A stretch of DNA of 64,000 nucleotides, from the IMG/VR virus record IMGVR_UViG_3300010376_000034, positions 5,575-69,574 of that record; one strand, 5' to 3'. Origin of the DNA: a virus. Lineage: Duplodnaviria; Caudoviricetes. The position numbers were made by a program, and so were the translations under genes. Shown piece by piece: positions 44,927 to 59,146 of the stretch; position 1 is the first letter of the stretch, and each line of letters begins with the position of its first letter. The notes under the pieces are model-generated. The model was not told the DNA's origin. It saw only the letters and a list, made by a program, of their open reading frames with translations, and ran no database searches.

Positions 44927-47563
44927 TCACTGCGCAAACCAAGAAGCACCACCCATCGGCGGCAGCAGACCGGCTTCCTTGAGCATTCGATCTGCCCAGG
45001 CGCGGCTCAATCCACTCTCTCGAACCTGTTTCGTCACCATGGCGATGGCCTGGTCCCTTGTCATCTCGCCGCGTTCAATCCGGCCTTTGAGGTCCTGCCC
45101 CCGCGCTATCGGATCGGCAGCAGCGCCCTGCTGCTGTCGCGCTGCCGGGGCGGCGGGTTGCTGTTCTTGGGCCGGCTTCTCTTCGGCTTTAGCCGGAGCC
45201 GGCGCGCTGCTGCCGGTGACGGCGGTGCTGAGCCAGTTCCATAGCCGTCCGAACGCACCCGGCTGGCTTGCTCCAGGCGTTGTCGTGGTAGCTCCCGCTG
45301 CGGGCGCCTGTGGCACGTTGAAGGTCGTGCCCCATTGCTTGTTGTAGGCATCAACGATGTCGTGTGCCTTCTGATCGCGATCGGGATCGTCCTTGATCCC
45401 GTCCAGCTGTTTCTGCAGCTGGCGCATGTGGAAGCGGTTGGTGGCCTCGACCTGGCCGGGCGCCCCGCGCCCTCCGGCCTGCCGATCTTGCTTCTCCTGA
45501 ATCTGCCGTAGCCGCTCGCGCTGGTACTCGGTCATCGGCTTGCCCGTCGCCTTGGGCGAGGCGATACCGGTATCAATGAGCTTGTTGCCAACCCGGTAAT
45601 GCAGCTTCTTGCCATCGTCGATCAGCTGCGGCTTCTGATCCAGCAGGTCCTCCTTGCGCTGGCGCTCGGCCGCCCCGCTCATCGCTGCCATGCCGGCCGC
45701 AACTCCCGGGCCAAGATAGGGACTACGATTGCTCAGCAATCCCATGCCGAGATTCCACAGCGGGTTATTCGCTAGACGTTGGGAGAAGGTCGGCGCAGGC
45801 CGCCCCAGTCCCGGTATCTGACGCACGCCATAGCCGCCACCGCCGCGCTGGGTGAGACCAGCTTGAGCGCGTGCCGTGCGCTCCCCCTCGGTCAAGCGTC
45901 CAGTCTCTGCCTCACTCGGCGTAGGGATACCGCCGGGCTCGTGCTCGCCTTCATCGGGTGTGTAGCCAGCTGCCGGGGGCCGCGGCGTGGGCGTGGGGAT
46001 ATTCCCCACGTCGGGCCCAGGCCCGGCGGCAACCATCTGCTGAGCAACGGGCGTCGTCCAACTCCCGCCACCCGTGGTCTCGGGCTCATCATCATCGTCG
46101 TCGTCTACGCTGTCGCCATCCGCGTAGCGCTTCACCGCACCACCCTCTTTGAGAAGCGCAAACAATGGCGCCGCCTTTACCGCCAGCTTGGCGACGCTAC
46201 CGATAGTGCTGGCGAGGTCGGTTCCGGGTTGCTGCTGAGTGCCCTTTGCCGCGCGCATCTGTTTCTGAATCCAGTCGCCAGCATCGGGTGGGCCGCCTTT
46301 GTATTGCGGTATGCTCAGGGGAGTGAGGCCAAGTCTTGTGCGGTCGGGATTGTCCACGTCGCCATATCCCGTGTTGCTGCCATAGCCGCCGCTCAGGTCC
46401 ATAGTCGGGCCCATGCCACCGCCGCCGACGCTACCGGTCGTAGTGATCGCCGGCGAACCGCCCGTCAGGTCGATGTTCGTGCTGCCACCACTCTGGCGCC
46501 GCATGGGAAGGCGCCGGCCAAGCGTGCCGGGTTGATTCTGTATTGTCCGAATCAGGCCGCCACCTCTCAGCATGACAGGGACGAGCCCACCGACCTGCCT
46601 GCGTACAAAGACCGGGCCACCCACGAAGCGTCGGGGAACGATGATAGGCACCAGCCCACCCCGCGCGAGTGCCGGGACCGGACCGCCGTGCTTGCCGGCG
46701 AATGCCGAACCGAGACCGGCGATTGCCGATGCGATGCCGGCGGCCTGGCCGAGAACATTGGGAGGAGGCGGTGTTGTGTAGCCCTGAGCAAAACTTCCCG
46801 TTAACGGCGCAACACCGCCCAGGATGGAGCCGTACCAGTTGGCGGTCTGGAACGGGTAGGCCGACGCCATCATCGCGTTCTGTTGCGCGACGTCGAGTTC
46901 CTTCTGCGCCTGCGCCTGTTGCTGCGCGCCCCATCCCATCAGCGCGCCGGCGCCCTGCATCTCCGCCATCGGCGCGCCAAGCTCAGCCTGCGCCCCAGCC
47001 AGGCCCATCTGCTTGAGTTGGTTGTATTCATTGAGCGCTTGCGTGTAGCCGGCCTGGCGCAGCCCGGCGATCACCGGCGCCTGTGCCAGCTGCTGCTGTC
47101 CCGCGAGTTGCGCCTCCGCGATGCCCGCACGATCGCCACCAAAGGCGTTGCCAGTGCGGATCGCCTGGCTCATCAAGTCGGTGCCTTGGATGGCGTTTTG
47201 ATTGTTAAACCAGTCCTGGGTCGCCTGAACGACGTCTTGCGTGTACGGACTTTCGATCGCGCGCACCTGCGTGGGATCGAAGGTGCCCAGGTTCTGGCCG
47301 ACGTTCATCAGGTTGGTGACGGCGCCCGGCATCAAGCCCATTGCGTCCGTCATGAACTGGCCGGCCTGGAACTCGGTCGGATTGAGCGGCGCAACAGACC
47401 CCAGCATCGCCGGATTGAACGGCGTCTGTGACAGGTTGGAAGCGTTGGCGAGGAAGTTCTGGTAGTAGGGCATGGCGACGGAGCTAGGCGACGTCGCCGA
47501 CTGGTACGCCGTCGAAGTTTGGTTCGGGACCGGAGGGCTGCCGCTCTTAGTGCACATCCTCAC
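44927..47563 (-). CDS. Ejection / DNA-transfer protein
   Basis: N-terminal QTSTAYQ..AMPYYQ..VAPLNP, NAFGGDRAGIAEA; Gln/Gly-rich. Confidence 0.65.
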   Translation of the reverse strand: MRMCTKSGSPPVPNQTSTAYQSATSPSSVAMPYYQNFLANASNLSQTPFNPAMLGSVAPLNPTEFQAGQFMTDAMGLMPGAVTNLMNVGQNLGTFDPTQVRAIESPYTQDVVQATQDWFNNQNAIQGTDLMSQAIRTGNAFGGDRAGIAEAQLAGQQQLAQAPVIAGLRQAGYTQALNEYNQLKQMGLAGAQAELGAPMAEMQGAGALMGWGAQQQAQAQKELDVAQQNAMMASAYPFQTANWYGSILGGVAPLTGSFAQGYTTPPPPNVLGQAAGIASAIAGLGSAFAGKHGGPVPALARGGLVPIIVPRRFVGGPVFVRRQVGGLVPVMLRGGGLIRTIQNQPGTLGRRLPMRRQSGGSTNIDLTGGSPAITTTGSVGGGGMGPTMDLSGGYGSNTGYGDVDNPDRTRLGLTPLSIPQYKGGPPDAGDWIQKQMRAAKGTQQQPGTDLASTIGSVAKLAVKAAPLFALLKEGGAVKRYADGDSVDDDDDDEPETTGGGSWTTPVAQQMVAAGPGPDVGNIPTPTPRPPAAGYTPDEGEHEPGGIPTPSEAETGRLTEGERTARAQAGLTQRGGGGYGVRQIPGLGRPAPTFSQRLANNPLWNLGMGLLSNRSPYLGPGVAAGMAAMSGAAERQRKEDLLDQKPQLIDDGKKLHYRVGNKLIDTGIASPKATGKPMTEYQRERLRQIQEKQDRQAGGRGAPGQVEATNRFHMRQLQKQLDGIKDDPDRDQKAHDIVDAYNKQWGTTFNVPQAPAAGATTTTPGASQPGAFGRLWNWLSTAVTGSSAPAPAKAEEKPAQEQQPAAPAARQQQGAAADPIARGQDLKGRIERGEMTRDQAIAMVTKQVRESGLSRAWADRMLKEAGLLPPMGGASWFAQ

Positions 47564-48218
47564 GCTCCCGCTGCGCTCGCCTACTCTCGCGAATGATGGT
47601 CTCGACTATTGGGCGAACCTTCTGGTCCTCTACCGGCACCCCCTTGTTCTTGCCATTCTGTTCGTCAATGCGCCGCATCTCTGCGGCCATCTTGTCCGCC
47701 TGCAGCGGAGGAAACCCGTACATGAAGTAAGCGCCGATGCAGGCCATGTGCCTGGCGTAGAGTCGTATCTTGGATTCCGTGCGATCAAAACTGTTGATCC
47801 CGACCTGCAGCGGCAGGAAGTAGCCGTCGGCCTTGAACATCTCGTGTGTCCACTTGGCTTGCTCGATCAACTTGCGGCCATACTCCGTGCGCCGGTAATC
47901 GGGGTGCACGTAGTTCCATCTCTCCAGTAGATACTCGTCGTCCGAGTACCAGTCACATGTGATGACCATGCCCAGCGTAGCCACGACGCCGATAGAATCG
48001 TCGATGCAGAAGATAATGCCGCCTTTACGCTCGGTCGCCCAGCGGATTCCAGCGAGGACCTTCTCCCGGTTGAGCCCGAACATGCCGTTCTCGGCATGCA
48101 ACATCATCAACAGGCTCAGCAGCTGCCACTCATCGTCCTTGGTCGCGAGGCGCACACCCGGGACGCCATGCTTCAAGCCAGGGTCGAAGAACACACGCTT
48201 CGGATGAACGACTGTCAT
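47547..48218 (-). CDS. GNAT-fold acetyltransferase-like virion-module protein
   Basis: YVHPDYRRTEYGRKLI resembles GNAT motif A. Confidence 0.6.
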   Translation of the reverse strand: MTVVHPKRVFFDPGLKHGVPGVRLATKDDEWQLLSLLMMLHAENGMFGLNREKVLAGIRWATERKGGIIFCIDDSIGVVATLGMVITCDWYSDDEYLLERWNYVHPDYRRTEYGRKLIEQAKWTHEMFKADGYFLPLQVGINSFDRTESKIRLYARHMACIGAYFMYGFPPLQADKMAAEMRRIDEQNGKNKGVPVEDQKVRPIVETIIRESRRAQREREDVH

Positions 48219-51200
48219 TTCACCGGCCCCGGTAACTCTTTCAGGTGTTGCACCGTTTGCTTGCGCACCCGGTTGACGGACTCGGCAAGCATATTCTTAC
48301 CCGCCTCCGCATCGCCCTGGCCCAGCGCCTCGACAATCTCCGGGTCGATGATTAGCTCGCCACCGGCGGTGATGATCGGCGTGTAGTCGCCCTTGTCGCT
48401 GTAGGTCGTCTCGCCTCCATCCGCGAAGCCAACGAACGCTCCTCTGCCGATTCCCGTCTTCGGATTGAGGCCGGGACTCGGCATGCGCAGGGATGGCGTC
48501 TTCATCGTGCGCGCCTTGATCGCATTCTGTATTCCCATCGGGCCGATCGAATGCGAGATGGCTTGGCCCCACATCCTGGCGCCGGCGTGGGTATTGCCCT
48601 GGCCTAGCCCACTCACAACATCCGCGGGCATGACGTAAGAGCCGGTGCGCGCACGCATGGGAATGCGATCGACGCGCCCAGGCACATGCGAGTTGATCAG
48701 ATGCACGCCAGGGGCGCGGCCCATCACCGCGCTCTCGGCAGCGCGCGTGTTGATGCCGCCAAAGTGCGCCTGCTTGAATGCGGTGTTCATTTCCGAGATG
48801 CCCAGCTTGGGCGTGGTCATGCCGCCACGTTGCAGCTGGATGAGACCACCAGTCGCCTGGCGCAATATCCTTGCCAGCGGCATGTCGCCTTGCTCTGGCG
48901 GAGGTTGCCCGCGAGTATCTTCGATGTTCGTCGACCGGGGTTGCCCAGCTAGGAAGTTTTCCCATTGCGGGGGCTTGATACGCAGCGGCGCGGGGTAGTT
49001 CCGTAGCTCACTCGGTATGCGATTCGTGGCACGATCATAGTATTCCGACAGAGGGCGAGGTGGATCGTAAAGCGGTTGCTGCGGTCGCAGCGAATGCCTC
49101 GCCCTTTCAAGTTGTTCGTCGGTCGGCACCGGCAGCATCTCGCCGCCGCGCTCGTAGTAGCCCGGCAGGTCAACGAGGCCGCCCTGCGCCATCATCCCCA
49201 TGCGGCCCATGCCCATGCCGCCCATGCCCATGCCGCGGCCGCCGCCCATCATCAGCGCTTGGCCCAGCGATGGCTGCTGCGGCGGAGGAGGATTCGCGTC
49301 ACCCTGACTCCAGCCGACGTCCGCCATCATCATGGATAGTTGCTCAGGCGAGAAGATCGACGCCAGCATCGTGCCCAGCTGCGGATTCTGTTGCATCATC
49401 GCAGCGAACTGGGAGGGGTTGCGTCGCATCGCCAGCTGCACTTGCTGGGCTACGGCCTGGTCGCCACCGAAATAGGATGGGTTCGCGAGCGCCGCCATCA
49501 TCGTGCTCGGTTGCGGCACGAGGCCGGCCGTTGGCGGTGCCGGCCCGGCAGGAGGCGGCGCAGCAGCTGGTGGCGCAGCTGACGGAGGCGCAGGGGGCGG
49601 CACGGCAGGAGGCGGTGTCGGTGGTGCAACAACAGGCGGTGGCGCAGGTGGCGTGATCGGCGGTTGTTCGACAGGCGGTGGTGTCACCTGATCACCTGGA
49701 CGCTCAGGCCGCTCAGGACCAATCTCGATAGGTCCCGTTGGAGGAGGCGGTACGGCCGACGTGAAGGGCGGCTCCTCATACGCAGATGGATCATACGGGT
49801 AACGATCCCGTCCCATGCCGGCACCGAGTTCTTCTGGTGTTGGCGGAACTGCACTTGGCACATAGACACCAGGCCCCTCTTGCCCCGGCTGGAGAATCGT
49901 TGGCTCGCGTCCAGATGGTAATCCCGATTGCGTTCCAGGGGCACCCGGTACAGGCGTGGTGCCAGGTGCAAAGAGCGGCGGCGCCGGCTCAGGCGGCACA
50001 GCCGCTGGTCCCATTTGCGTTCCAGTTGGACCGGCGACGCTGACGCCAGGCTCGGAGCCAGGCGGCGTGCCTGCCGCTCCCAGCTGCGGTCCAGCGATCG
50101 GCGGTGTCTCTGATGGCGGTGCTGCCGGCGGCATGTAAACGCCGTAGGGGCCAGGCTGAGCCGCGTAAGGCACGGCTCCAGTATAGGGCGTGACACCTCC
50201 AGGCACCGCCGGCATAGCCACTGTGGTCGGCTGTGCCGCACGCGCGGCATCCAATGCTGCCTGAAAACGATCTAATCGGGCGGCCTCATCGGGATGCGAT
50301 TGCAAGTAGTTTCTGACCGTATCGGCACTGTAGCCGCTTTGCTTGACGGCACGATCGAACGCCGTCTCTCTCCCGCTAACCAGGTTGGCTTTGTCTTGCG
50401 CGCTGAGCCCCTTGAGAGTGTCTGCGAGCGCTTGCTGGTCAGCTTTCGACAGGTTTCGCACTCCCTGATCGAAACTTCTTGCTGCATTCTGTACACGCTC
50501 GCCGCTAGTCACCGGCCGTGCTTGCTCGGGGAACGTACCTGGTCGACCGGCTTGCTGTTGCGCTGCCCAATCCCGCATAGCCGCAGATGGCTCTGACGGC
50601 GGTGGCGGCGCTTCTGGCGGTCGCTCGCCCGCTTGCGTACCGGGTGCTCCCGGAACGCCAGCTGCACTAGGCGGCGCGCCCTCCGGGATCGGAGTAAGGC
50701 CAGGCTGCGCCGTCGTTCCAGCCGGCGGTGCACCTGGAGTGAAGCCACCACGTGTCTCACCGGCCTGCGTACCGGGCGCGCCAGGTCCCGCCGGCGTGAC
50801 GTCACCCGCGCGACCGAGACTCGGCTCTCGTAACGCCTCGCCACCCATCTCCGGCGGTGTCGGTTCGACCGCAGGACGTTCAACGAGACCTGCTTGCGTG
50901 CCAGGAGCACCGCCGCCTCTCGGGGTGACGTCACCCCATCCGCCCGGCCCTGCCGGAAGGGGCTCTCCCGGGACCGCTGGCGGCGCCAAAGGAGCACCTC
51001 GCTCGACGACGCCCGGGGCGCCGCCCGGAATGCCAGGAGGCGCCGGTTCTCTGCCACCGAAAGGCGGAAGCACCTCTCGACCTGCTTGCGTCCCAGCTGC
51101 GCCTGGCCCGCGTGGCGTGACATCGCCTGCGCGTCCAACACCAGGAGCCGCTGGCTGCGGAGCCATGGGCGTTCCCGGCATGACCTGTCCAAGCGGGATA

Positions 51201-54200
51201 ACTCCAGCTGGACCGGTAACCGCCCTGCCAGGTGCGCGCTCGCCTGATGGTCCGCCGACTAATCCAGGGCGAACAGTCTCGGGGGCTGGCATGGCACCGA
51301 TCGGCGGGACCACCTGCAGTCCTGCCGTCGGCTGCGCGGGCATGGGCGTCCCGGGCATGATCTGACCAGGAGGGATCGCCCCGGCCGGCCCAATGACTGC
51401 CCCCGGAGCCTGCATCGGAGGCGCCACCTCGCGGCCCGCCTGCGTACCAGGAGCGCCAGTAACAGTCACACCAGGCTCAGAACCAGGCGGTGTGCCAGCC
51501 CGCCCCAGTTGCGGTGCAACAACTGCCGCCGGCGGCACCCCTTGGATCATCGGCTCGGTGCCAGGAACTGGCGGGATGACGCCCCGGCCGCCCGCGAGCG
51601 CGGCTCTGTTCTCTGCCCAGCCAGTCGGCGTAGTCGGTACGTCGCCGTGGGCTACTGGTGGTGGTGTGGGCTCTGCGCCAGGTGCGCCCGTATAGACCGC
51701 CCATCGGGAGGGGCGCTCTCCGGGCATTTGAATGTGCGCCGGATCATTTTGACCAAGCAAACCCAACCCAAGTCCCGGAGCAATGCTCCGCATAACCTCG
51801 ATGGCTTGATCGCGCGACATCCCCTGCGGGGCGCCCTCGATCCTTATGTCCGCGCCGGCTCCCGTGGTGTGATAAGAATTTCTAGTCCAGGTGACCTTGG
51901 CGCCACCCGTTGTTCGTCCTTGCTTATAAAGCTGGTCCTGGCGCGACTGCGGCCGGTAACCTTCGTTGAGCGTTGCCCGAATACCGCGCTTCTCAAGCTC
52001 GGTTAGGAGTTGATCGACGCGCGAGGCAAACTCGGGCCGCAGATGCGATAGATCACTGTCAACATTCGGGCCGTAGTTATCGTCCTTGACGGGCACCGAA
52101 CCAGGCGGCAGCGGGGCCGCTTGCCGATCAACATTGCGCTGCTGATATTGCTGAGTGGATTGTTGTTGCTGCTGTGTTTGCTGTTCTGTGGGACCCAGCG
52201 CCACCTTGCCCGCGCGCCCACCTGCCTGCGGCGGCCGCATAAGCTGAGCGAGTTTGCGTTCCAACGCCCCTTTATTCTGGCCGACATCGCGCGGTTGCTC
52301 ATCGAACTGAAAGTCTTTGGCATCTACGGGTTCTTTCCCCGCCGTACCTTTCGGGCCGGCACCTCTCTGCGGAACATCGACGTGATAAGTCTGTCCGGGC
52401 TGGTCAAAGAGGCCGCGCTTGCCTACGTCCTCCTGGACAAACGGTACGTTCTCGCGAATGACGTTTCCGTTCTTGTCGGTCAACGTCATCGTGCCTGTGC
52501 GGCCTAACGCTGCGCGCGGGCCAGCAACACCGACGTATGACGAACGACCCGCCAGATAATCATTGACGTCCTTGACCCTCTGATCGATGGCGTTCTTTTG
52601 GCCGCCTTCGCCCTTCGCTCTGCTGGCCGGATCGTATTTGGTAATAAGAGGATTCTCTCGCGTCGACCTGCTGGCTTGCTCGGCAACGATCTTCTCGTCC
52701 TCGCTCAAAGTCTCTTTTCTTGCTGCGGCCCTTGCCGCCGAAGCCCTTGCAGCTGCCCTGGTTCTCGCTTCCGCCGGCGAGACAGGTGATACCGCTGCTG
52801 CCGCCGCTTGCAATGCAGCGAGCGCGCGCTCACCGATGCTCTGCGCACCGGGAGGCGCCGGCGGCGCGGTCGGCGGCGGCGTAGGTCCTCCGCCCGGAGG
52901 CGCCGGCGGAAGTTTCTCGGCCCGCTGACTCGGGGGAAGCTCGGGCGCACCGGGAGGACCGGGCGCACCCGGCTCGCGCCTCGCTTGCCTACCGGCCGCG
53001 ATCGCCTCGCGCGTGGTCGGCTCGGTGGTCGGAACAGGAGCCGCGGCTGTCGGCGCCGTCGCTGGTGCCAACCCCGGAGTTGGCCCGGTCACGGGCGCGC
53101 GCTGCTGGGTCAGACCTCGTTGGCGCTCCTTCTCTTTCTCCTGGTCCGATGGCGGTGGCGGCGGTACGCGCAGCAACTCCGACGTTCCCGGCTCGGTTGG
53201 AGGCGCCGGCTGCATCTGCGGCCCCAGACCAGGCGTCATCAGATCGCCCGGCGAGATTCCAACCCCCGGACCCATCACCGGTCCCGTCCCCCACGGCGCG
53301 ACTGGTATCATCCCCGGTCCAACAACCGGCGGCCCAGGCGTTATGGTCCCGCGCTGATCGCCGCCAGGTCCCACACGCTCTCCGCCGAGAGGAGCTACGG
53401 GAGGAGGCTCGAATATCTGCGGACCAGGACCTTGCGGCGGACCAAAAGGCTGCAGCCCTGGCCCGGTCGGCGCCACTACGTTTGGTGGGCCCGGCTCGGT
53501 TGTCGGCGAAGGCACGAGCACATCGCGAGCGCCCGTGGGGACATCCGGCGCAGCAGTACGCGCTCCGCCTATGGGCCCTGTGGGCGGCGCTGAAGTCATG
53601 CTCCCCGGCTCGAAGACGTCGGTCCGCGTCCCATCGGGACTCGGCGCCACCGGCTGTACGCCAGGCTGTGCGAGGTTTGGACCTTGCGCGGCCGCGTTGG
53701 GCGGCTGCGTCGTGTCCGGCGTGACCGGCGTCGCCGGCCCGGTCGATACCGATGGCGGCTCCTGCACATCGGGCTCTGTCGTACCGGACGGCGCCTGCGC
53801 ACCGGGTTGCCCAGTCGGACCCGTCGCGAAGTTCTCCAGGGTGGAAGGGGCAGCGGGTTGACCGGGGGCCGCACCGGCACCAGGGGGCGCAACGGTGCCG
53901 CTTGGATTGATGATCCTTTCCATATCATTGCCGGCCGAACCCGCACCGGTAGTGATCGTGGCGTTGGGGTCAGCCGCACCTGCCGCAATCTCTATCTTCG
54001 CCGCATTCGGATCAGAGGTGCCGCCCATGAAGGCGAGCGAACCAGGAGACAGCGCCGCGCCGCCGCCGCTCGGATCGGTTTGCGAGGCGAGATAGGCTTG
54101 GCTCGGGAAGCCTTCCGGCGTGAGCGCAGCAGGACCTCCGCCACGCTCCCTGTCGCTTCTGTCTCCACCATAAAGATCGCCGCCCGCCGGCGTCACATAG

Positions 54201-56077
54201 TCGCCATACGGCCCAAGCCCGCCAGGCAAGCCGCCGAGACCGACGGTCAGGTCTCCGCCACCCGGGATTCCACCAGCGCCACCTATCGGCGAGACGATGG
54301 CACCGCCGCCGGTATCACTGGTCGACGGCGCAAAGTTCTGGTCGAGAGACGCAACCTGCGTTCCCCCACCGGTCAGGTCCGGCTGCCCACCCCCCATCAG
54401 CATGTCCATCGTGTCGGGGCTGACGGTCTGGTCGGCGGCGGTGACGTTGGTCAAGCCAGCAACCGGGCCCCGGTCGGCAGCACTCGGAACGGTGATGTCA
54501 CTTGGGAGCGTCTGGTCGCCGCCGGGCATCGTGAAGTCGCCGGCAAACTGATCGCTGGGCGCGGCGGTATCGAACGCGCTGCCCAGGCCGGCCGCGGCCG
54601 GACCAAATTCGTTGATGACGTCCTGCGGGCTGCCTGTGACTATAAAAATGCCTTGACCGGGCGGGGAAGGCGCGGGGACGTTCTGCATCGTCCCGCCGCC
54701 GAAGGTGCCGAAGAAACCTGATGTCGAAGTGCCCAGCGCTGCGGCGGCCGCCGCCATTTCGGCGAGCGTTGATTGCCCGACCATGCTGGCCATCTGCGCC
54801 GTCACCGCAGGCACCGAAGCCTGCGGTGCATTCAAGATGGCATTGGCCGCAGCGGCATTCGCCAGGCCAAGATTCGACGTCCCCAACTCGACGGAGGACT
54901 CCGCCGGGCCCACGGCAAAGCCTTGGGCGGCATTGAGCGCCGATGCGCTCGACTGACTGATCACGCCAGACGGCTCAAAATCCGCCACGCCCATCTCCGG
55001 GCCCGTAGCTGTGCCAAAGGCGCCAGGGCCTGGACCAGGATTGGCACTAGGGCTGAAGGTGCCCCCGGGAATGCCGCTAGGACTCATGCTGAGCCCGGAG
55101 CTAAGACCGAAACTCGGGCCCTGGTTCTGGCTCTGATCCTGACTCATGCCGACGGCCGTTGGGCCGATGTCGAAACTGCCCATGCCGGCAAGGCCCACGC
55201 TGCCCACATCCAAGCCGCCCATGCTGAAGCCGCCGCCGACAGACGGAGCGCCGCCAGCCATCGCAAAACCACCAACGTCGGACGCTTGGCCGCCAAAGCC
55301 GAAACCGCCGCTCTCACCGGAGGGGGCACCGCCGCCTACGTCGCCAGGTGCGCCAGCAAAATCAGCAGCGGATGGTGCACCGCCCATATCAGGGCCGGAC
55401 GGTGCGCCACCCATCTCAGGGCCGCCGGATGGTGCGCCGCCACCGGGAGGGGCAGACCCGCCGCCAGCGGCAGCCCCGCCGCAACCGGCACAGGCCCCGC
55501 CGGTACAGCCGCAGCCGCTGCCACAGGAACAGCCGCAGCCGGTCGCACCGCTGGCACCGCAGGCACAGGCGCCACCACATTGGCCGCCACAGGAGCAACC
55601 GCAGGCACCTTCGCCACACGAACAGCTACAGCCGCCAGGTCCGCAGCCGCCTTGTCCACCACCCGGGCCGCCGCCTTCATCACCGCAGCCACCGCAACCA
55701 CCACAGCCCCCACAACCGCCGCAGCCACCACAGCCACCAAGATCGGGGCGGGGGCGGTCGCGCGGGTAAAACAGATCGAGCGCGAATGCTTGTCTGTAGC
55801 CGCGGTCAATCACACCCCAATCGGCACCGTCGGGAATGAATCGGTTTTTCATCGTCCGCGGCGAACGGAAATACGCCCGGCTGGCAATGCGATTCGCCCA
55901 CTCCCTGCGAAAAGCGAACTCGATTTCATAAAACAGTTTGTTCTTGTACCGCCGCTGTCTCGCGGCAGCCTTGTAGCTCTCCGGCATTTCGTGTTCGTTG
56001 CGCAGGAAAAACGCGGGTATCGGCTCATCCTCGCAAGCCGGTCGCTTTGTGCGCTTTTTCTTCATCGCGCTAGCCAC
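48215..56077 (-). CDS. Giant (2620 aa) Pro/Gly-rich ejection-type protein with an N-terminal Cys-rich domain and an internal M15 peptidase
   Basis: Uninterrupted ORF; 23 Cys in aa 114-201; EGYRPQSRQ..SYHTTGAGAD..DPAH; C-terminal VMPADVVSGLGQG..AG and GGELII..EIV. Confidence 0.7.
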   Translation of the reverse strand: MASAMKKKRTKRPACEDEPIPAFFLRNEHEMPESYKAAARQRRYKNKLFYEIEFAFRREWANRIASRAYFRSPRTMKNRFIPDGADWGVIDRGYRQAFALDLFYPRDRPRPDLGGCGGCGGCGGCGGCGGCGDEGGGPGGGQGGCGPGGCSCSCGEGACGCSCGGQCGGACACGASGATGCGCSCGSGCGCTGGACAGCGGAAAGGGSAPPGGGAPSGGPEMGGAPSGPDMGGAPSAADFAGAPGDVGGGAPSGESGGFGFGGQASDVGGFAMAGGAPSVGGGFSMGGLDVGSVGLAGMGSFDIGPTAVGMSQDQSQNQGPSFGLSSGLSMSPSGIPGGTFSPSANPGPGPGAFGTATGPEMGVADFEPSGVISQSSASALNAAQGFAVGPAESSVELGTSNLGLANAAAANAILNAPQASVPAVTAQMASMVGQSTLAEMAAAAAALGTSTSGFFGTFGGGTMQNVPAPSPPGQGIFIVTGSPQDVINEFGPAAAGLGSAFDTAAPSDQFAGDFTMPGGDQTLPSDITVPSAADRGPVAGLTNVTAADQTVSPDTMDMLMGGGQPDLTGGGTQVASLDQNFAPSTSDTGGGAIVSPIGGAGGIPGGGDLTVGLGGLPGGLGPYGDYVTPAGGDLYGGDRSDRERGGGPAALTPEGFPSQAYLASQTDPSGGGAALSPGSLAFMGGTSDPNAAKIEIAAGAADPNATITTGAGSAGNDMERIINPSGTVAPPGAGAAPGQPAAPSTLENFATGPTGQPGAQAPSGTTEPDVQEPPSVSTGPATPVTPDTTQPPNAAAQGPNLAQPGVQPVAPSPDGTRTDVFEPGSMTSAPPTGPIGGARTAAPDVPTGARDVLVPSPTTEPGPPNVVAPTGPGLQPFGPPQGPGPQIFEPPPVAPLGGERVGPGGDQRGTITPGPPVVGPGMIPVAPWGTGPVMGPGVGISPGDLMTPGLGPQMQPAPPTEPGTSELLRVPPPPPSDQEKEKERQRGLTQQRAPVTGPTPGLAPATAPTAAAPVPTTEPTTREAIAAGRQARREPGAPGPPGAPELPPSQRAEKLPPAPPGGGPTPPPTAPPAPPGAQSIGERALAALQAAAAAVSPVSPAEARTRAAARASAARAAARKETLSEDEKIVAEQASRSTRENPLITKYDPASRAKGEGGQKNAIDQRVKDVNDYLAGRSSYVGVAGPRAALGRTGTMTLTDKNGNVIRENVPFVQEDVGKRGLFDQPGQTYHVDVPQRGAGPKGTAGKEPVDAKDFQFDEQPRDVGQNKGALERKLAQLMRPPQAGGRAGKVALGPTEQQTQQQQQSTQQYQQRNVDRQAAPLPPGSVPVKDDNYGPNVDSDLSHLRPEFASRVDQLLTELEKRGIRATLNEGYRPQSRQDQLYKQGRTTGGAKVTWTRNSYHTTGAGADIRIEGAPQGMSRDQAIEVMRSIAPGLGLGLLGQNDPAHIQMPGERPSRWAVYTGAPGAEPTPPPVAHGDVPTTPTGWAENRAALAGGRGVIPPVPGTEPMIQGVPPAAVVAPQLGRAGTPPGSEPGVTVTGAPGTQAGREVAPPMQAPGAVIGPAGAIPPGQIMPGTPMPAQPTAGLQVVPPIGAMPAPETVRPGLVGGPSGERAPGRAVTGPAGVIPLGQVMPGTPMAPQPAAPGVGRAGDVTPRGPGAAGTQAGREVLPPFGGREPAPPGIPGGAPGVVERGAPLAPPAVPGEPLPAGPGGWGDVTPRGGGAPGTQAGLVERPAVEPTPPEMGGEALREPSLGRAGDVTPAGPGAPGTQAGETRGGFTPGAPPAGTTAQPGLTPIPEGAPPSAAGVPGAPGTQAGERPPEAPPPPSEPSAAMRDWAAQQQAGRPGTFPEQARPVTSGERVQNAARSFDQGVRNLSKADQQALADTLKGLSAQDKANLVSGRETAFDRAVKQSGYSADTVRNYLQSHPDEAARLDRFQAALDAARAAQPTTVAMPAVPGGVTPYTGAVPYAAQPGPYGVYMPPAAPPSETPPIAGPQLGAAGTPPGSEPGVSVAGPTGTQMGPAAVPPEPAPPLFAPGTTPVPGAPGTQSGLPSGREPTILQPGQEGPGVYVPSAVPPTPEELGAGMGRDRYPYDPSAYEEPPFTSAVPPPPTGPIEIGPERPERPGDQVTPPPVEQPPITPPAPPPVVAPPTPPPAVPPPAPPSAAPPAAAPPPAGPAPPTAGLVPQPSTMMAALANPSYFGGDQAVAQQVQLAMRRNPSQFAAMMQQNPQLGTMLASIFSPEQLSMMMADVGWSQGDANPPPPQQPSLGQALMMGGGRGMGMGGMGMGRMGMMAQGGLVDLPGYYERGGEMLPVPTDEQLERARHSLRPQQPLYDPPRPLSEYYDRATNRIPSELRNYPAPLRIKPPQWENFLAGQPRSTNIEDTRGQPPPEQGDMPLARILRQATGGLIQLQRGGMTTPKLGISEMNTAFKQAHFGGINTRAAESAVMGRAPGVHLINSHVPGRVDRIPMRARTGSYVMPADVVSGLGQGNTHAGARMWGQAISHSIGPMGIQNAIKARTMKTPSLRMPSPGLNPKTGIGRGAFVGFADGGETTYSDKGDYTPIITAGGELIIDPEIVEALGQGDAEAGKNMLAESVNRVRKQTVQHLKELPGPVK

Positions 56078-56460
56078 TTGACCCGTGTGGTCGGACCTTT
56101 CCGCCAGCCTTCTCCCATGGTGCGCGCCCAGCCATCACGGCCGATGCCGGTAATGCGGTCGCAGCCCTTCCTCGCCGCCCATGCTTCGACGCCGGAATGA
56201 AGTTTTTTGAGTTCCCCAAGGTCGGGCCCCTGGAGCCAATAGTTGAAATCGCGCAATCCAATCGGCCAGTCGAAAAACTCGCCCACAATCACGCATTTCT
56301 CCGTCGACCAGAGAAACGCCTTCCCCGTGGAAATGCGCCACCACACTTGTTCTTTGTTGTGGGTCGGACCAAACTCGCACAGCGATGCCCACAACCAGGG
56401 CCAGCAGCGATCAAACTCCGCCTGCAACTCCGTCAGGTTATCGGTCGACCGGGGCTCCAT
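56062..56460 (-). CDS. Small tail-assembly / GNAT-like protein
   Basis: EAWAARKGCDRITGIGRDGWAR, a pattern typical of podovirus genes preceding ejection proteins. Confidence 0.6.
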   Translation of the reverse strand: MEPRSTDNLTELQAEFDRCWPWLWASLCEFGPTHNKEQVWWRISTGKAFLWSTEKCVIVGEFFDWPIGLRDFNYWLQGPDLGELKKLHSGVEAWAARKGCDRITGIGRDGWARTMGEGWRKGPTTRVKWLAR

Positions 56461-56887
56461 GATTCGCGAATCTACACGAGCTTGGACCTACCGGGAACAC
56501 ATTCGCCACATCACGGATGGCGTCTGGGTCCCGATGTACGACGATGCCGGCAACAGGCTCAAAGACATCGAGGGCAAGCGCGGGGTGCGCGCGCAGAAGG
56601 CCGACGGCAGCTATATCGGCTGTGACTTCATCAGAATGCAGCCCGGCAGCAGCTTCCCCATGCACACGCACGCTGGCGAGCACGTGCTCTACATCATCTA
56701 CGGCGAGGGCTTCGTCCACATCGGCGGCGAGGACATTGCGGTGCGTGCCGACCACGTGATTCACATCCCGGCCGAATGCCCGCACAATGTCTGGTGCGCT
56801 GAGCGCTCGCTAATGTTTGCCGCCACCGGTCATCCGCACGTCCGGGTCGATGCTCACGACCGGATGAAATCGTTGTCCTCGACGTAG
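56459..56887 (+). CDS. Cupin-domain protein, antisense to the late operon (start uncertain)
   Basis: PMHTHAGEHVLYIIYGEG...IHIPAECPHNV. Confidence 0.75.
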   Translation: MIRESTRAWTYREHIRHITDGVWVPMYDDAGNRLKDIEGKRGVRAQKADGSYIGCDFIRMQPGSSFPMHTHAGEHVLYIIYGEGFVHIGGEDIAVRADHVIHIPAECPHNVWCAERSLMFAATGHPHVRVDAHDRMKSLSST

Positions 56888-56895
56888 AGTTCATC

Positions 56896-57939
56896 CTAGG
56901 TCGCGTCGTGGCGGAACTCGAACTTCTCATCAATGAAGTTGATCGGCGTGTGCATCGGCAGGATGTATTGCAAAGAGCCGATCTTGATCTTGCCGTCGCG
57001 GTAGGCCGCATCCTTGTGGAACCGGTAGATCAACTCCTTGGCCGGCCACTTGTAACTGCGCCAGCCTCCCTTCGTGCGCTCGCCGACGTTGTTCATGCTC
57101 CAAAGTTGGAAGCTCTCGGTGTTGTAGAACGGCGCATAATAGTCGTGCATGTACTGCGGGGTGATGCCCTTGCGATTGCGCGCCGCCGCGAAACTCACCG
57201 TGCGCGTATAGACATTTTGCCATTTGAAGACGAAGTTGATCCACCAGAACATGTCGAAGTTGGTCTTCAACTCGACCGGCGCATTTTCCTTCAGGCGCTC
57301 GAACACCTTGACGACGAAAAACCGTGCCGCCGCCGCATCGTCCCACTTGTCCTCGTAGACGGCCTGGAACAGCTTTCGGTCATACGGTTCGAGCATCCTG
57401 TCGAAGCCAAAATGCCCGGCCACGGTGCCGATGATATCGGAACCAAATAGCTGGTCGTTGCCTTCGCCGCTGACGAGGAGCTTCTTGAGCCCCAGGATGT
57501 ACGGAAACAGCATCACGGACTTGCACCGCAGCCTGCCCCGGATATGGGCCCGGTAGAAGCTGGGAAACTCATCGATGGAACCGTCCGAAAGCAACACGAC
57601 GATACGTTCTTTCTCCGGGGCCATCTTGATCAGCGACGTGAGCGCGCACGTGCTGTCGATACCTCCAGACCAGAACACATAGATTTCCGTGTCTAGCTTG
57701 TGGGCGCAGGCGATCAACTCCGTCGCACGTACATTGCAAGTCTCCTCATAGCTCGCGTTGTAGGCACGCATTGCCGGCACGGGAAACATCGACTTGGCTC
57801 GTACCGGAAACTTCATCAAGCCAGTGCGGTCGAGCGGCGCCGTGGCGTAGCACTCGAAGTAACGGTTGAACAACCGGAGCGCAGGCAGCTTGGCGTGCCA
57901 GCGCGCAAGATACTCCGGCCTGTAGTGCACAAAGCTCAT
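56896..57939 (-). CDS. Stand-alone asparagine-synthetase-like ATP pyrophosphatase (no glutaminase domain)
   Basis: VFWSGGIDST PP-loop; LVSGEGNDQLFG. Confidence 0.7.
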   Translation of the reverse strand: MSFVHYRPEYLARWHAKLPALRLFNRYFECYATAPLDRTGLMKFPVRAKSMFPVPAMRAYNASYEETCNVRATELIACAHKLDTEIYVFWSGGIDSTCALTSLIKMAPEKERIVVLLSDGSIDEFPSFYRAHIRGRLRCKSVMLFPYILGLKKLLVSGEGNDQLFGSDIIGTVAGHFGFDRMLEPYDRKLFQAVYEDKWDDAAAARFFVVKVFERLKENAPVELKTNFDMFWWINFVFKWQNVYTRTVSFAAARNRKGITPQYMHDYYAPFYNTESFQLWSMNNVGERTKGGWRSYKWPAKELIYRFHKDAAYRDGKIKIGSLQYILPMHTPINFIDEKFEFRHDAT

Positions 57940-58586
57940 CGCTTTGCCCGCATGGTATCGAAGAACTCTCTGCGAAACTCCCTGAGCACCAGGTCGCACT
58001 TTGCCGGCATATCCGCTTGCTTGAGCGCACCCAGGTATCTCAACCGGAACGATTCCGTCTTCAGCAGCAGATCATCATCAAGGCGTGCCTTGAGTAGTAT
58101 CTCGTCGGCCACGGCGCGCATGGGAAGCCCGGAGATTTCCGAGTATTGCAACAGGTAGGGAAACTCCAACTCGTCGTCACCCTCCCGATATTGTTGCGCC
58201 TCCATCTTCTTCGCGACATAGACTCGGTCCTGTCCGACCACCCCGTTGATCAAGGGAAAGCGCGCTCCCGACAAGGTGCGGAATATCTCGATCAACGCAT
58301 GCCCTTTCGCGGTCGCAAGCGCCGCGGCGTCCACAAGACGCTGGTCTATGAGCCCTTTCTCGGTTCGCTCAAACAGCCGCTTGCCTTCATCCCACCGCCA
58401 TTGCGGGTAGGTTTTCGGATCGGCTTTAGCCAGGCCGAAACTGCCAAGATAGTTCGGGTGGTTGGCCCAGATGACGTGCACCGTTTCCGGCTCGCTCTTG
58501 ACCAGAAACGCCACGACATCGACGCGATCTGTGAGCACCAACAGCGCGTTGGTCGAAGCATCGATCAGCGCACTAAAGGGAATCAA
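57936..58586 (-). CDS. Hypothetical protein with a tail-fibre-chaperone-like C-terminus
   Basis: QDRVYVAKKMEAQQY...PYLLQYSEISG...ADEILLK; coupled to both neighbours. Confidence 0.55.
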   Translation of the reverse strand: MIPFSALIDASTNALLVLTDRVDVVAFLVKSEPETVHVIWANHPNYLGSFGLAKADPKTYPQWRWDEGKRLFERTEKGLIDQRLVDAAALATAKGHALIEIFRTLSGARFPLINGVVGQDRVYVAKKMEAQQYREGDDELEFPYLLQYSEISGLPMRAVADEILLKARLDDDLLLKTESFRLRYLGALKQADMPAKCDLVLREFRREFFDTMRAKR

Positions 58587-59146
58587 ACCAGCCCGCCGCG
58601 CGCAAAGGCCCGCGCGATTCCGCCGCCCAGCGCGTAGCGTCTCACCTCCGCGCGCTCGCCGGGAAGCATCGCATTGAGACGCTTCTGGCCTTCAAGCAGC
58701 TGCTGGATCACCCGGATGTAGGCCGGATCGGTCTGGTGCGCCATCATCGGTTCGAGGCTCACCCCTTCCGTCACTTGCGGAAGATCGGGATCGTGCGGAT
58801 GGTCGACCAGGCCGCCGACCAGGCCGCCGCGCTGAAGCCCTTGTTCCTCGCGCGGTATGACATTACGAGGCTGATACCAGTTGACGTCAAAATCCTCGCC
58901 CTCTTTCAGGTCCCTTGGAGGCTTGCCAAAAACGCGCCCGCTCCTTTCCCGATCATAAGGCAAAGGTGCGAGTTGTCGCTCTTGCCTCTCGTGTTCCGCT
59001 ACGATTCCCCCATCTTGACGCCCGCGCTCCTTGGAGTACGCAATCGCCAGCGCCTGCGCGCGCGACTGGACGTGGGGGGACTTCCCCACCTCGCCCATCA
59101 GGGTGCGGATATTCTCTTTAAGGTATCCCGGTCCCTGGAGTGGCAT
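58583..59146 (-). CDS. Hypothetical virion-module protein with xxGG motifs
   Basis: SRAQALAIAYS; RQDGG, LQRGG, YALGG, FARGG. Confidence 0.6.
   Translation of the reverse strand: MPLQGPGYLKENIRTLMGEVGKSPHVQSRAQALAIAYSKERGRQDGGIVAEHERQERQLAPLPYDRERSGRVFGKPPRDLKEGEDFDVNWYQPRNVIPREEQGLQRGGLVGGLVDHPHDPDLPQVTEGVSLEPMMAHQTDPAYIRVIQQLLEGQKRLNAMLPGERAEVRRYALGGGIARAFARGGLV

Follow-up and report, generated by a model that had tools for sequence, protein, structure and literature searches.

Among the described systems closest to the locus analysed here are the lasso systems, in which a cyclase homologous to AsnB adenylates the side chain of an Asp or Glu, the thiazole/oxazole-modified microcins (TOMM), such as microcin B17 (McbBCD) and streptolysin S (SagBCD), and the ranthipeptide, sactipeptide and QhpD-type systems with radical SAM/SPASM maturases. 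The locus lies in a 64 kb stretch of DNA (the window) of the 69,574-bp IMG/VR virus record IMGVR_UViG_3300010376_000034, a soil podovirus rated 100% complete, in which a PP-loop ATP pyrophosphatase (hereafter PP), a 216-aa partner and a cupin, together called the cassette, stand next to the gene of a giant 2620-aa protein with a Cys/Gly-rich tract. An earlier note, made from the sequence of the window, had proposed that these genes resemble a cassette for ribosomally synthesised and post-translationally modified peptides (RiPPs) and that their target is the tract. This proposal gained ground in that the trio is conserved and the cellular members of its clade are found in TOMM-type operons beside precursor-like peptides, but it lost ground in that the tract is also found without the cassette and most cassette-bearing phage loci have no such tract within 10 kb. 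The features on which the argument turns are the following (coordinates of the window):

56896..57939, minus strand: PP-loop ATP pyrophosphatase; the open reading frame (ORF) is open to a GTG at 57999 (56896..57999, 367 aa), with the ATG at 57939 as the likely start
57936..58586, minus strand: 216-aa partner of the PP, modelled as a small alpha/beta N-terminal domain plus a long helical bundle (pLDDT 90)
56459..56887, plus strand: cupin of 142 aa, Pfam Cupin_2 (PF07883), E 1.4e-13 (50.8 bits, cut-off 27.2)
48215..56077, minus strand: putative giant 2620-aa internal virion/ejection protein as translated, with a high content of Gly, Pro and Ala and a domain of the cell-wall hydrolase kind
55739..56077, minus strand: first 113 aa of the giant protein, which contain an FFLR-type motif and, directly before the tract, RPRPD-L-GG
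55475..55738, minus strand: Cys/Gly-rich tract, aa 114-201 of the giant protein, with 23 Cys and 43 Gly
51836..52045, minus strand: VanY-like (peptidase M15) segment of the giant protein, Pfam PF02557, aa 1345-1414, E 8.3e-5

As judged from its predicted fold and its PP-loop motif, the PP is an AsnB-class synthetase domain without a glutaminase. The residues S111, G112, G113, D115 and S116 of the SGGxDS motif were invariant in 32 homologues, and the AlphaFold model of the protein (pLDDT 89.3), in which the synthetase fold begins at around residue 25, matched AsnB-class enzymes with VIA Z scores of 10.4-13.3. The highest score corresponded to the hydroxyamidotransferase TsnB9 (13.3 over 252 aa), followed by beta-lactam synthetase (12.6), human ASNS (11.9), E. 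coli AsnB (11.5) and CarA (10.9), whereas GMP/NAD synthetases and LarE scored below the AsnB class (Z 7-9); the Foldseek match of the model had an E value of 5e-5. No N-terminal nucleophile (Ntn) glutaminase or glutaminase-like domain was found in the 347-367 aa of the protein, the length depending on the start, or in its model. Searches with the sequence gave no Pfam, NCBIfam or PHROG match and no PDB match beyond the PP-loop: the PDB single-sequence and profile searches retrieved just the PP-loop of LarE, at E 1.4, and Pfam Asn_synthase (PF00733) was not matched even at E 10. Thus, the designation of this protein as a glutaminase-less AsnB-type ATP pyrophosphatase holds for the predicted fold, the PP-loop and the missing glutaminase domain, but finds no counterpart in any sequence family.

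The PP resembles AsnB, beta-lactam synthetase, CarA and TsnB9 in the SGGxDS motif and in the predicted fold over around 200-250 residues, and the chemistry expected to be common to all of them is the formation of an acyl-adenylate from a carboxylate, followed by attack of a nitrogen nucleophile. It differs from them in the absence of the glutaminase domain, in showing no detectable sequence similarity beyond the PP-loop, and in that its family pairs with a helical partner of 210-250 aa and often with a cupin. The likely ATG of the PP at 57939 shares an ATGA overlap with the stop codon (TGA) of the 216-aa gene, so that the translational coupling first noticed in the sequence stands; the ESM Atlas entry of the protein begins at residue 21. 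Long PP variants (430-700 aa) were considered as fusions of the 216-aa protein with the PP and were rejected as such, as no 216 domain was found in their N-terminal extensions and a PDB search with these extensions was empty.

The 216-aa partner had no Pfam, PHROG or NCBIfam family match, and a Foldseek search of the PDB with its model gave nothing at E <=0.001. VIA matched the model to generic three-helix bundles with Z <=10.2, and the Hsp70 lid appeared at Z 7.6-8.5 among many unrelated helical proteins. As none of these matches is informative, calling this protein chaperone-like, as had been done, is unsupported. A split-off glutaminase domain was also considered and discarded, since the protein has no conserved N-terminal Cys and its predicted fold is different. 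By contrast with the doubtful label of its neighbour, the cupin that had been recognised near the AsnB-like gene is a real Cupin_2 protein of the two-motif metal-binding beta-barrel type, whose metal-site motif (His-x-His...Glu...His) can be read in the translation, but it is encoded on the opposite strand (+). It is 54% identical to the cupin beside the PP in a Paceibacterota genome and 49-60% identical to the cupins of phage relatives.

Homologues of the PP were found in large numbers, with more than 350 in the protein database, more than 483 matching stretches in IMG/VR and 59 cellular genomes (species representatives), and the atlas clusters of the PP have up to 703 members, around 94% of them viral. 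The ORFs of 80 viral PP loci were clustered, revealing a gene of the 216 family (210-250 aa) directly upstream of the PP in 67 loci, as was also seen in at least 26 cellular loci, and a cupin (around 140-230 aa) after the pair in 37 of the viral loci. Many phages carry 2-4 tandem copies of the module. The 216-aa partner, the PP and the cupin are, then, a real conserved module. Its recurrent neighbours in phages are a radical SAM/SPASM peptide maturase, a B12 radical SAM methyltransferase, a sodium/solute symporter (SSS) and a fatty-acid-desaturase-like protein; the phage symporter, of around 460 aa, was seen beside the complete module in seven loci (L027, L035, L040, L048, L062, L068 and L069).

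The closest relatives of the cassette are found in ultra-small bacteria of the candidate phyla radiation (CPR). In a FastTree phylogeny of 133 PPs, the 8 PPs of the window's group (100% support) nest within a clade supported at 99% that also holds 28 PPs of CPR and Bdellovibrionota, and the other 55 phage PPs fall apart from this clade. On large contigs, the PP was present in Paceibacterota, Moranbacteria, Saccharibacteria, Kaiserbacteria and Nomurabacteria, with a recurrent gene order of YcaO, SagB-type dehydrogenase, a protein joining a phosphoribosyltransferase (PRTase) domain to a pyrroloquinoline quinone (PQQ) beta-propeller, the 216-aa partner and the PP (loci L218-L245, L211, L213 and L216), near which a cupin, an SSS symporter, a tetratricopeptide repeat protein and genes of no assigned function were also detected. 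The CPR YcaO matches TIGR03604 (SagD type, thiazole/oxazole-forming) at 3e-40 and the dehydrogenase matches TIGR03605 (SagB) at 2e-29, above the cut-off. The whole trio occurs in CPR genomes, and there too the cupin is on the opposite strand. In several genomes, the cluster is flanked by the genes of ribosomal proteins S10 and L3.

The 28 cellular loci of this clade were scanned for small ORFs with a tract, and 14 of them contain a small unannotated ORF whose product begins with a hydrophobic anchor, carries an AHADAP-type motif and has a tail composed almost entirely of Gly, Cys, Asp and Ser (Gly/Glu in one case); in 4 of these 14 loci there is no YcaO within 10 kb. A strict tract scan found none in 1153 kb of unrelated phage loci (those of the Cys-rich proteins described below), none in 496 kb of non-CPR cellular PP loci, one, in a relative of the window, in 1191 kb of viral PP loci, and none in the reversed-sequence controls; over these control loci, around 2.8 Mb in all, such tracts are nearly absent. 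In composition, the tails of the CPR peptides fall into one class with the phage tract and the Cys-free forms of it. The CPR operons resemble TOMM systems in that they combine the 216-PP pair with YcaO of the SagD type and a dehydrogenase of the SagB type, and in that their small peptides, like the phage tract, are rich in Gly, Cys and Ser, as is the microcin B17 core; in composition, both would fit a TOMM core. They differ in that no E1-like C protein was recognised in them and in that the peptides have a signal-anchor-like N-terminus instead of a classic leader; in the phage, the supposed core lies within a 2620-aa structural protein. Regardless of the substrate of the phage cassette, the analysis has brought to light a conserved CPR operon in which TOMM-type enzymes are accompanied by Gly/Cys/Asp-rich peptides without annotation, and a large unnamed enzyme module, with a confident predicted fold and conserved partners, has been delimited.

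The giant protein has the traits of an internal virion/ejection protein that carries a cell-wall hydrolase, a reading supported by its composition, by the VanY/M15 match, weak at 22.8 bits and slightly below the 25-bit cut-off, and by the presence of Amidase_2 in the homologue of a relative (L217). Its gene sits between a tail/'stabilization' gene (phrog_3287) and a DNA ejection gene (phrog_4287). As had been pointed out, its Cys residues are clustered in a single stretch, with 23 of 24 located within aa 116-199, so that the rest of the protein is nearly free of Cys. The tract starts with (GGC)x6 and continues with CxCxC-type units, written with mixed synonymous codons (TGT 13 and TGC 10 for Cys; GGC 23, GGT 15, GGG 3 and GGA 2 for Gly), and the sole repeat reported by TRF is an imperfect one of 9 nt (80% matches) beneath the (GGC)6 portion; hence, both the architecture and the codon variation described at first were confirmed. 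The 113 aa before the tract had been taken as leader-like. This region had no family match in Pfam, PHROGs, NCBIfam or PDB searches, and the alignment revealed that it is a conserved part of the ejection protein, kept in relatives with and without the cassette, including the cassette-less L089, so that the comparison with a leader is not sustained.

The window's phage group was sampled through its 931-aa tail protein, giving 48 loci. Where the cassette is present, its site is constant, between the gene of a 187-aa protein and those of a 132-aa protein and the giant protein, on the strand of the late virion genes; this holds for the window, L083, L096, L106, L108, L111 and L217, and also for L001 and L002, which lack the cupin. 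Nearly all the readable relatives, with the cassette or without it, have a Gly-rich tract with Cys or Asp/Glu at the same place of the giant protein. In 14 of 17 the tract contains 9-31 Cys, despite a divergence of 35-80% in the neighbouring genes, and the Gly/acidic variants are Gly/Glu with 1 Cys (L081), Gly/Glu (L121, a distant relative) and Gly/Asp without Cys (L103). Over all these relatives, the length of the tract ranges from 45 to 185 aa and its Cys content from 0 to 31. Relatives with the cassette have 11-31 tract Cys (median 24) and those without it 0-16 (median around 11), a difference with a naive Mann-Whitney p of around 0.004, uncorrected for phylogeny.

From these data, it is quite possible, and we tentatively favour, that the 216-aa partner, PP and cupin make up an accessory peptide or protein maturation cassette, otherwise of CPR type, that acts on the tract of the ejection protein. 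In such a mechanism, the 216-aa partner and the PP, being translationally coupled, would act together, and the PP would use ATP to adenylate a carboxylate, either an Asp/Glu side chain or a C-terminus, on which a nitrogen nucleophile (ammonia or an amine) would attack to yield an amide or a cross-link; the cupin, presumably metal-dependent, could add an oxidative or isomerising step. The most likely substrate in the phage would be the Gly/Cys/acidic tract (aa 106-205 of the ejection protein), which would be modified in the cytoplasm before packaging, and the modification might tune its metal binding, disulfides or cross-links once it is ejected into the host envelope. The sequences show the anatomy of the locus, the predicted fold of the PP, the conservation of the module, its place in the phylogeny and its co-occurrence with tract-bearing peptides; the substrate, chemistry and biological role of the cassette are what we infer here, the chemistry from the fold class. 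The modification would have to be dispensable, given that a shorter tract is retained in relatives that have no cassette. If this reading is true, RiPP-style chemistry would reach a large virion protein that is delivered into the host envelope, adding a new layer to phage infection biology. Whatever the substrate, a testable pair is now defined, formed by the 216-aa, PP and cupin proteins on one side and a 210-aa N-terminal fragment of the giant protein on the other.

A closely related and slightly more doubtful version is that the tract is a phage-embedded RiPP-like core, matured by a cassette that was captured from a CPR peptide pathway so far undescribed (YcaO/SagB, PRTase-propeller, 216-PP and cupin), which in the CPR acts on secreted Gly/Cys/Asp-rich peptides. 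If this version is true, it would be the first RiPP-type maturation of a virion protein, and the glutaminase-less PPs with the AsnB fold would constitute a new family of peptide amidoligases. A second piece of the CPR operon, the PRTase-like domain, occupies this site in three relatives, the cassette-less L089 and L092 and the distant L121: ORFs sharing around 30% identity with the N-terminal, PRTase-like part of the CPR propeller protein were detected at L089:15537-16538, L092:6209-7051, L121:13369-13833 and L014:1419-1898, and those of L089, L092 and L121 stand directly before the giant gene, in the place of the cassette. As far as can be read from the sequences, this arrangement is best seen as pieces of a CPR-type pathway captured next to the only gene of the window's phage with a matching tract. 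The CPR cellular context makes the idea of the earlier note considerably more plausible than the phage data alone. The GC content of the phage is around 62%, against 42-58% in the CPR genomes, so that GC content does not tie the phage to them as hosts.

Several observations weigh against an action of the cassette on the tract. Fisher's test of the presence of the tract against that of the cassette was not significant (p 0.21), and although the higher Cys count in cassette-bearing relatives is suggestive support for a link, it is confounded by phylogeny, because most cassette-less phages belong to a single subgroup, in which the 187-aa protein is fused to the giant one. The complete genome of L084 (71,103 bp, with terminal repeats, CheckV 100%) has an 11-Cys tract and no PP homologue, and therefore the tract does not depend on the cassette; six further relatives (L085, L089, L097, L098, L100 and L107) have 9-16 Cys and no cassette at the syntenic site. 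That the genes might occur independently of the Cys-rich domain had been named in advance as part of what would refute the proposal, and this was found in part, in that the tract is kept in cassette-less relatives, among them this complete genome. The same site carries other cargo in three phages: L089 has a LAGLIDADG-like ORF there together with a PRTase-like one, L092 has a PRTase-like ORF, and L106 has an ORF of 1170 aa. In around 70 of the 80 cassette-bearing phage loci there is no Cys-rich or Gly/acidic tract within 10 kb, and most phage modules lie among genes of nucleotide metabolism or of the auxiliary metabolic type (ribonucleotide reductase, PhoH, exonuclease). The SSS symporter adjoins the module in CPR genomes as it does in phages, which fits a small-molecule substrate. 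At the level of the genes themselves, the PP has no sequence-level match to any characterised enzyme, and the co-expression of the cupin with the late operon is not assured, because the cupin is antisense to this operon, whose transcript runs through it. Finally, the window's phage differs from TOMM systems in having no YcaO (PF02624 found none in the complete 69.6-kb record, where the controls matched) and no nitroreductase/SagB match among the neighbours scanned, and no radical SAM gene is present in it.

Part of these data would be expected if the cassette were mobile accessory cargo at a permissive insertion hot spot, with a small molecule that the symporter imports or exports, or a host peptide or envelope component, as its target. 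The different cargo found at the 187-aa/giant site, the survival of the tract without the cassette, the symporter beside the module in phages and CPR, and the company of most phage modules, often in 2-4 copies without any tract among ribonucleotide reductase, PhoH, exonuclease, symporter, B12 radical SAM and desaturase-like genes, all speak in its favour. Even so, we consider this explanation, the main rival, somewhat less likely than an action on the tract, as it leaves unexplained the tie of the window-type PP clade to TOMM operons and tract-bearing peptides, the landing of two pieces of the CPR operon beside the one tract-bearing gene of the genome, and the translational chaining of the cassette into the late virion operon.

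It is less probable still that the tract is an unmodified, disordered low-complexity spacer, or a metal/disulfide or polyanion-like element, that drifts in composition and on which no phage enzyme acts. Its replacement by Gly/Glu (L081, L121) or Gly/Asp (L103) runs, the imperfect 9-nt tandem repeat underlying part of it, the variation in length and Cys number given above and the complete genome that has a tract and no cassette would all be accommodated. Against drift stand the maintenance of Cys, with mixed synonymous codons, in 14 of the 17 readable relatives despite the divergence of the neighbouring genes, and the same alternation of Cys with acidic residues in the precursor-like peptides of the CPR maturase operons, which suggests one functional class rather than drift. 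An unmodified tract in some phages is, in any case, compatible with a cassette that modifies the tract only where the cassette is present.

A lasso-type cyclase forming an N-terminal macrolactam in a leader-cleaved peptide would share with McjC-type C enzymes, and their B1/B2 companions, the use of an AsnB-related ATP-dependent enzyme on the carboxylate of a ribosomal peptide, and the PP model does have the AsnB-class fold of these cyclases, but such a system was rejected as very improbable on both companion genes and architecture, since no transglutaminase-like leader peptidase or PqqD-like protein was recognised by Pfam or NCBIfam among the 132-, 187-, 216- and 367-aa proteins and the cupin, the PP is truncated with respect to lasso cyclases, which keep the N-terminal domain, Pfam Asn_synthase is unmatched, and the candidate substrate, whose supposed core is preceded by 113 aa and followed by 2400 aa of the 2620-aa protein, does not have the form of a short leader-core peptide with Asp/Glu at core position 7-9. 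The analogy with lasso cyclases drawn at the outset has, in consequence, none of the lasso-defining features behind it.

A co-occurrence of the cassette with free-standing Cys-rich peptides had also been suggested as a check, and such proteins do exist in phages. In 6 of the 80 cassette loci, a Cys-rich protein of 137-366 aa is encoded 2-3 genes upstream of the cassette; it belongs to a family with a conserved MTL... N-terminus and a dense CxCxC/NCNC tail (L132-L210, and also L022, L024, L026, L043, L044 and L046). When 80 loci of this family were surveyed, out of 134 viral stretches matched, a radical SAM/SPASM maturase directly adjoined the Cys-rich protein in 79 and the cassette was found in around 10. 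This maturase corresponds to phrog_1802, with PapB, QhpD and CcpM as its best NCBIfam matches. Moreover, the PPs that adjoin the free-standing Cys-rich protein form one subclade of the PP tree. From these figures, the partner of the Cys-rich protein is the radical SAM enzyme, and the adjacency of the cassette is a single-lineage trait. The expected co-occurrence is thus real in one phage lineage, in which the cassette follows the Cys-rich protein and the SPASM maturase, but it is limited to those few loci. The free-standing protein was accordingly rejected as a universal substrate of the cassette, its constant neighbour being the radical SAM/SPASM enzyme instead. The likeness of this lineage to ranthipeptide, sactipeptide or QhpD-type SPASM systems does not extend to the window, whose phage lacks a radical SAM gene, and the Cys-rich protein tracks the radical SAM enzyme and not the cassette. 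The free-standing Cys-rich protein looks like a virion-associated protein with a dedicated thioether-type maturase. As a separate observation, its gene often stands directly after a tail-fibre gene with an S74 chaperone domain.

In its position in the late block, its hydrolase-like domain, its low-complexity linkers and its giant size, the 2620-aa protein can be compared with ejection proteins of the T7 gp16 and P22 gp7/gp16/gp20 type. From these it differs in the Cys/Gly tract and the neighbouring maturase-type cassette, neither of which was found reported for ejection proteins in the literature searched; likewise, these searches yielded no account of the module, of the CPR YcaO cluster or of ejection proteins with Cys/Gly tracts. 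The late virion block is encoded entirely on the minus strand and comprises the 931-aa tail/'stabilization' gene (phrog_3287), small genes, the 2620-aa giant gene, a GNAT gene, the 878-aa DNA ejection gene (phrog_4287) and the gene of a 2223-aa protein with an LPD38 domain. The neighbouring features are:

58583..59146, minus strand: 187-aa backbone gene, directly upstream of the cassette, identified in relatives by tblastn; its stop overlaps the start of the 216-aa gene
56062..56460, minus strand: backbone gene (132 aa) that separates the cassette from the giant gene and does not belong to the cassette
47547-48218, minus strand: GNAT acetyltransferase, directly after the giant gene in the window, L084 and L217
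38281-44952, minus strand: LPD38-domain protein of 2223 aa (E 8e-38), also part of the ejection-protein block

The 132-aa protein had no family match in Pfam, PHROGs, NCBIfam or PDB searches, and a homologue was found in the cassette-less relative L081, which assigns its gene to the backbone and not to the cassette. The cupin converges on the PP gene, and its ATG overlaps that of the divergent 132-aa gene as CATG (56458-56461); because both start codons share this palindrome, the promoter of the cupin must be located within the 132-aa gene. Scans for promoters and terminators in the cassette region did no better than on shuffled sequences. In a second subgroup of relatives (L084, L097, L100, L103, L107 and L121), a homologue of the 187-aa protein is fused to the N-terminus of the giant protein, and because of this the window lineage, with its separate 187-aa gene, looks split exactly where the cassette is inserted. 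At the variable site between the tail and giant genes of L089, the ORF with a LAGLIDADG-like motif, which has no Pfam match, spans 148 aa (L089:14832-15278).

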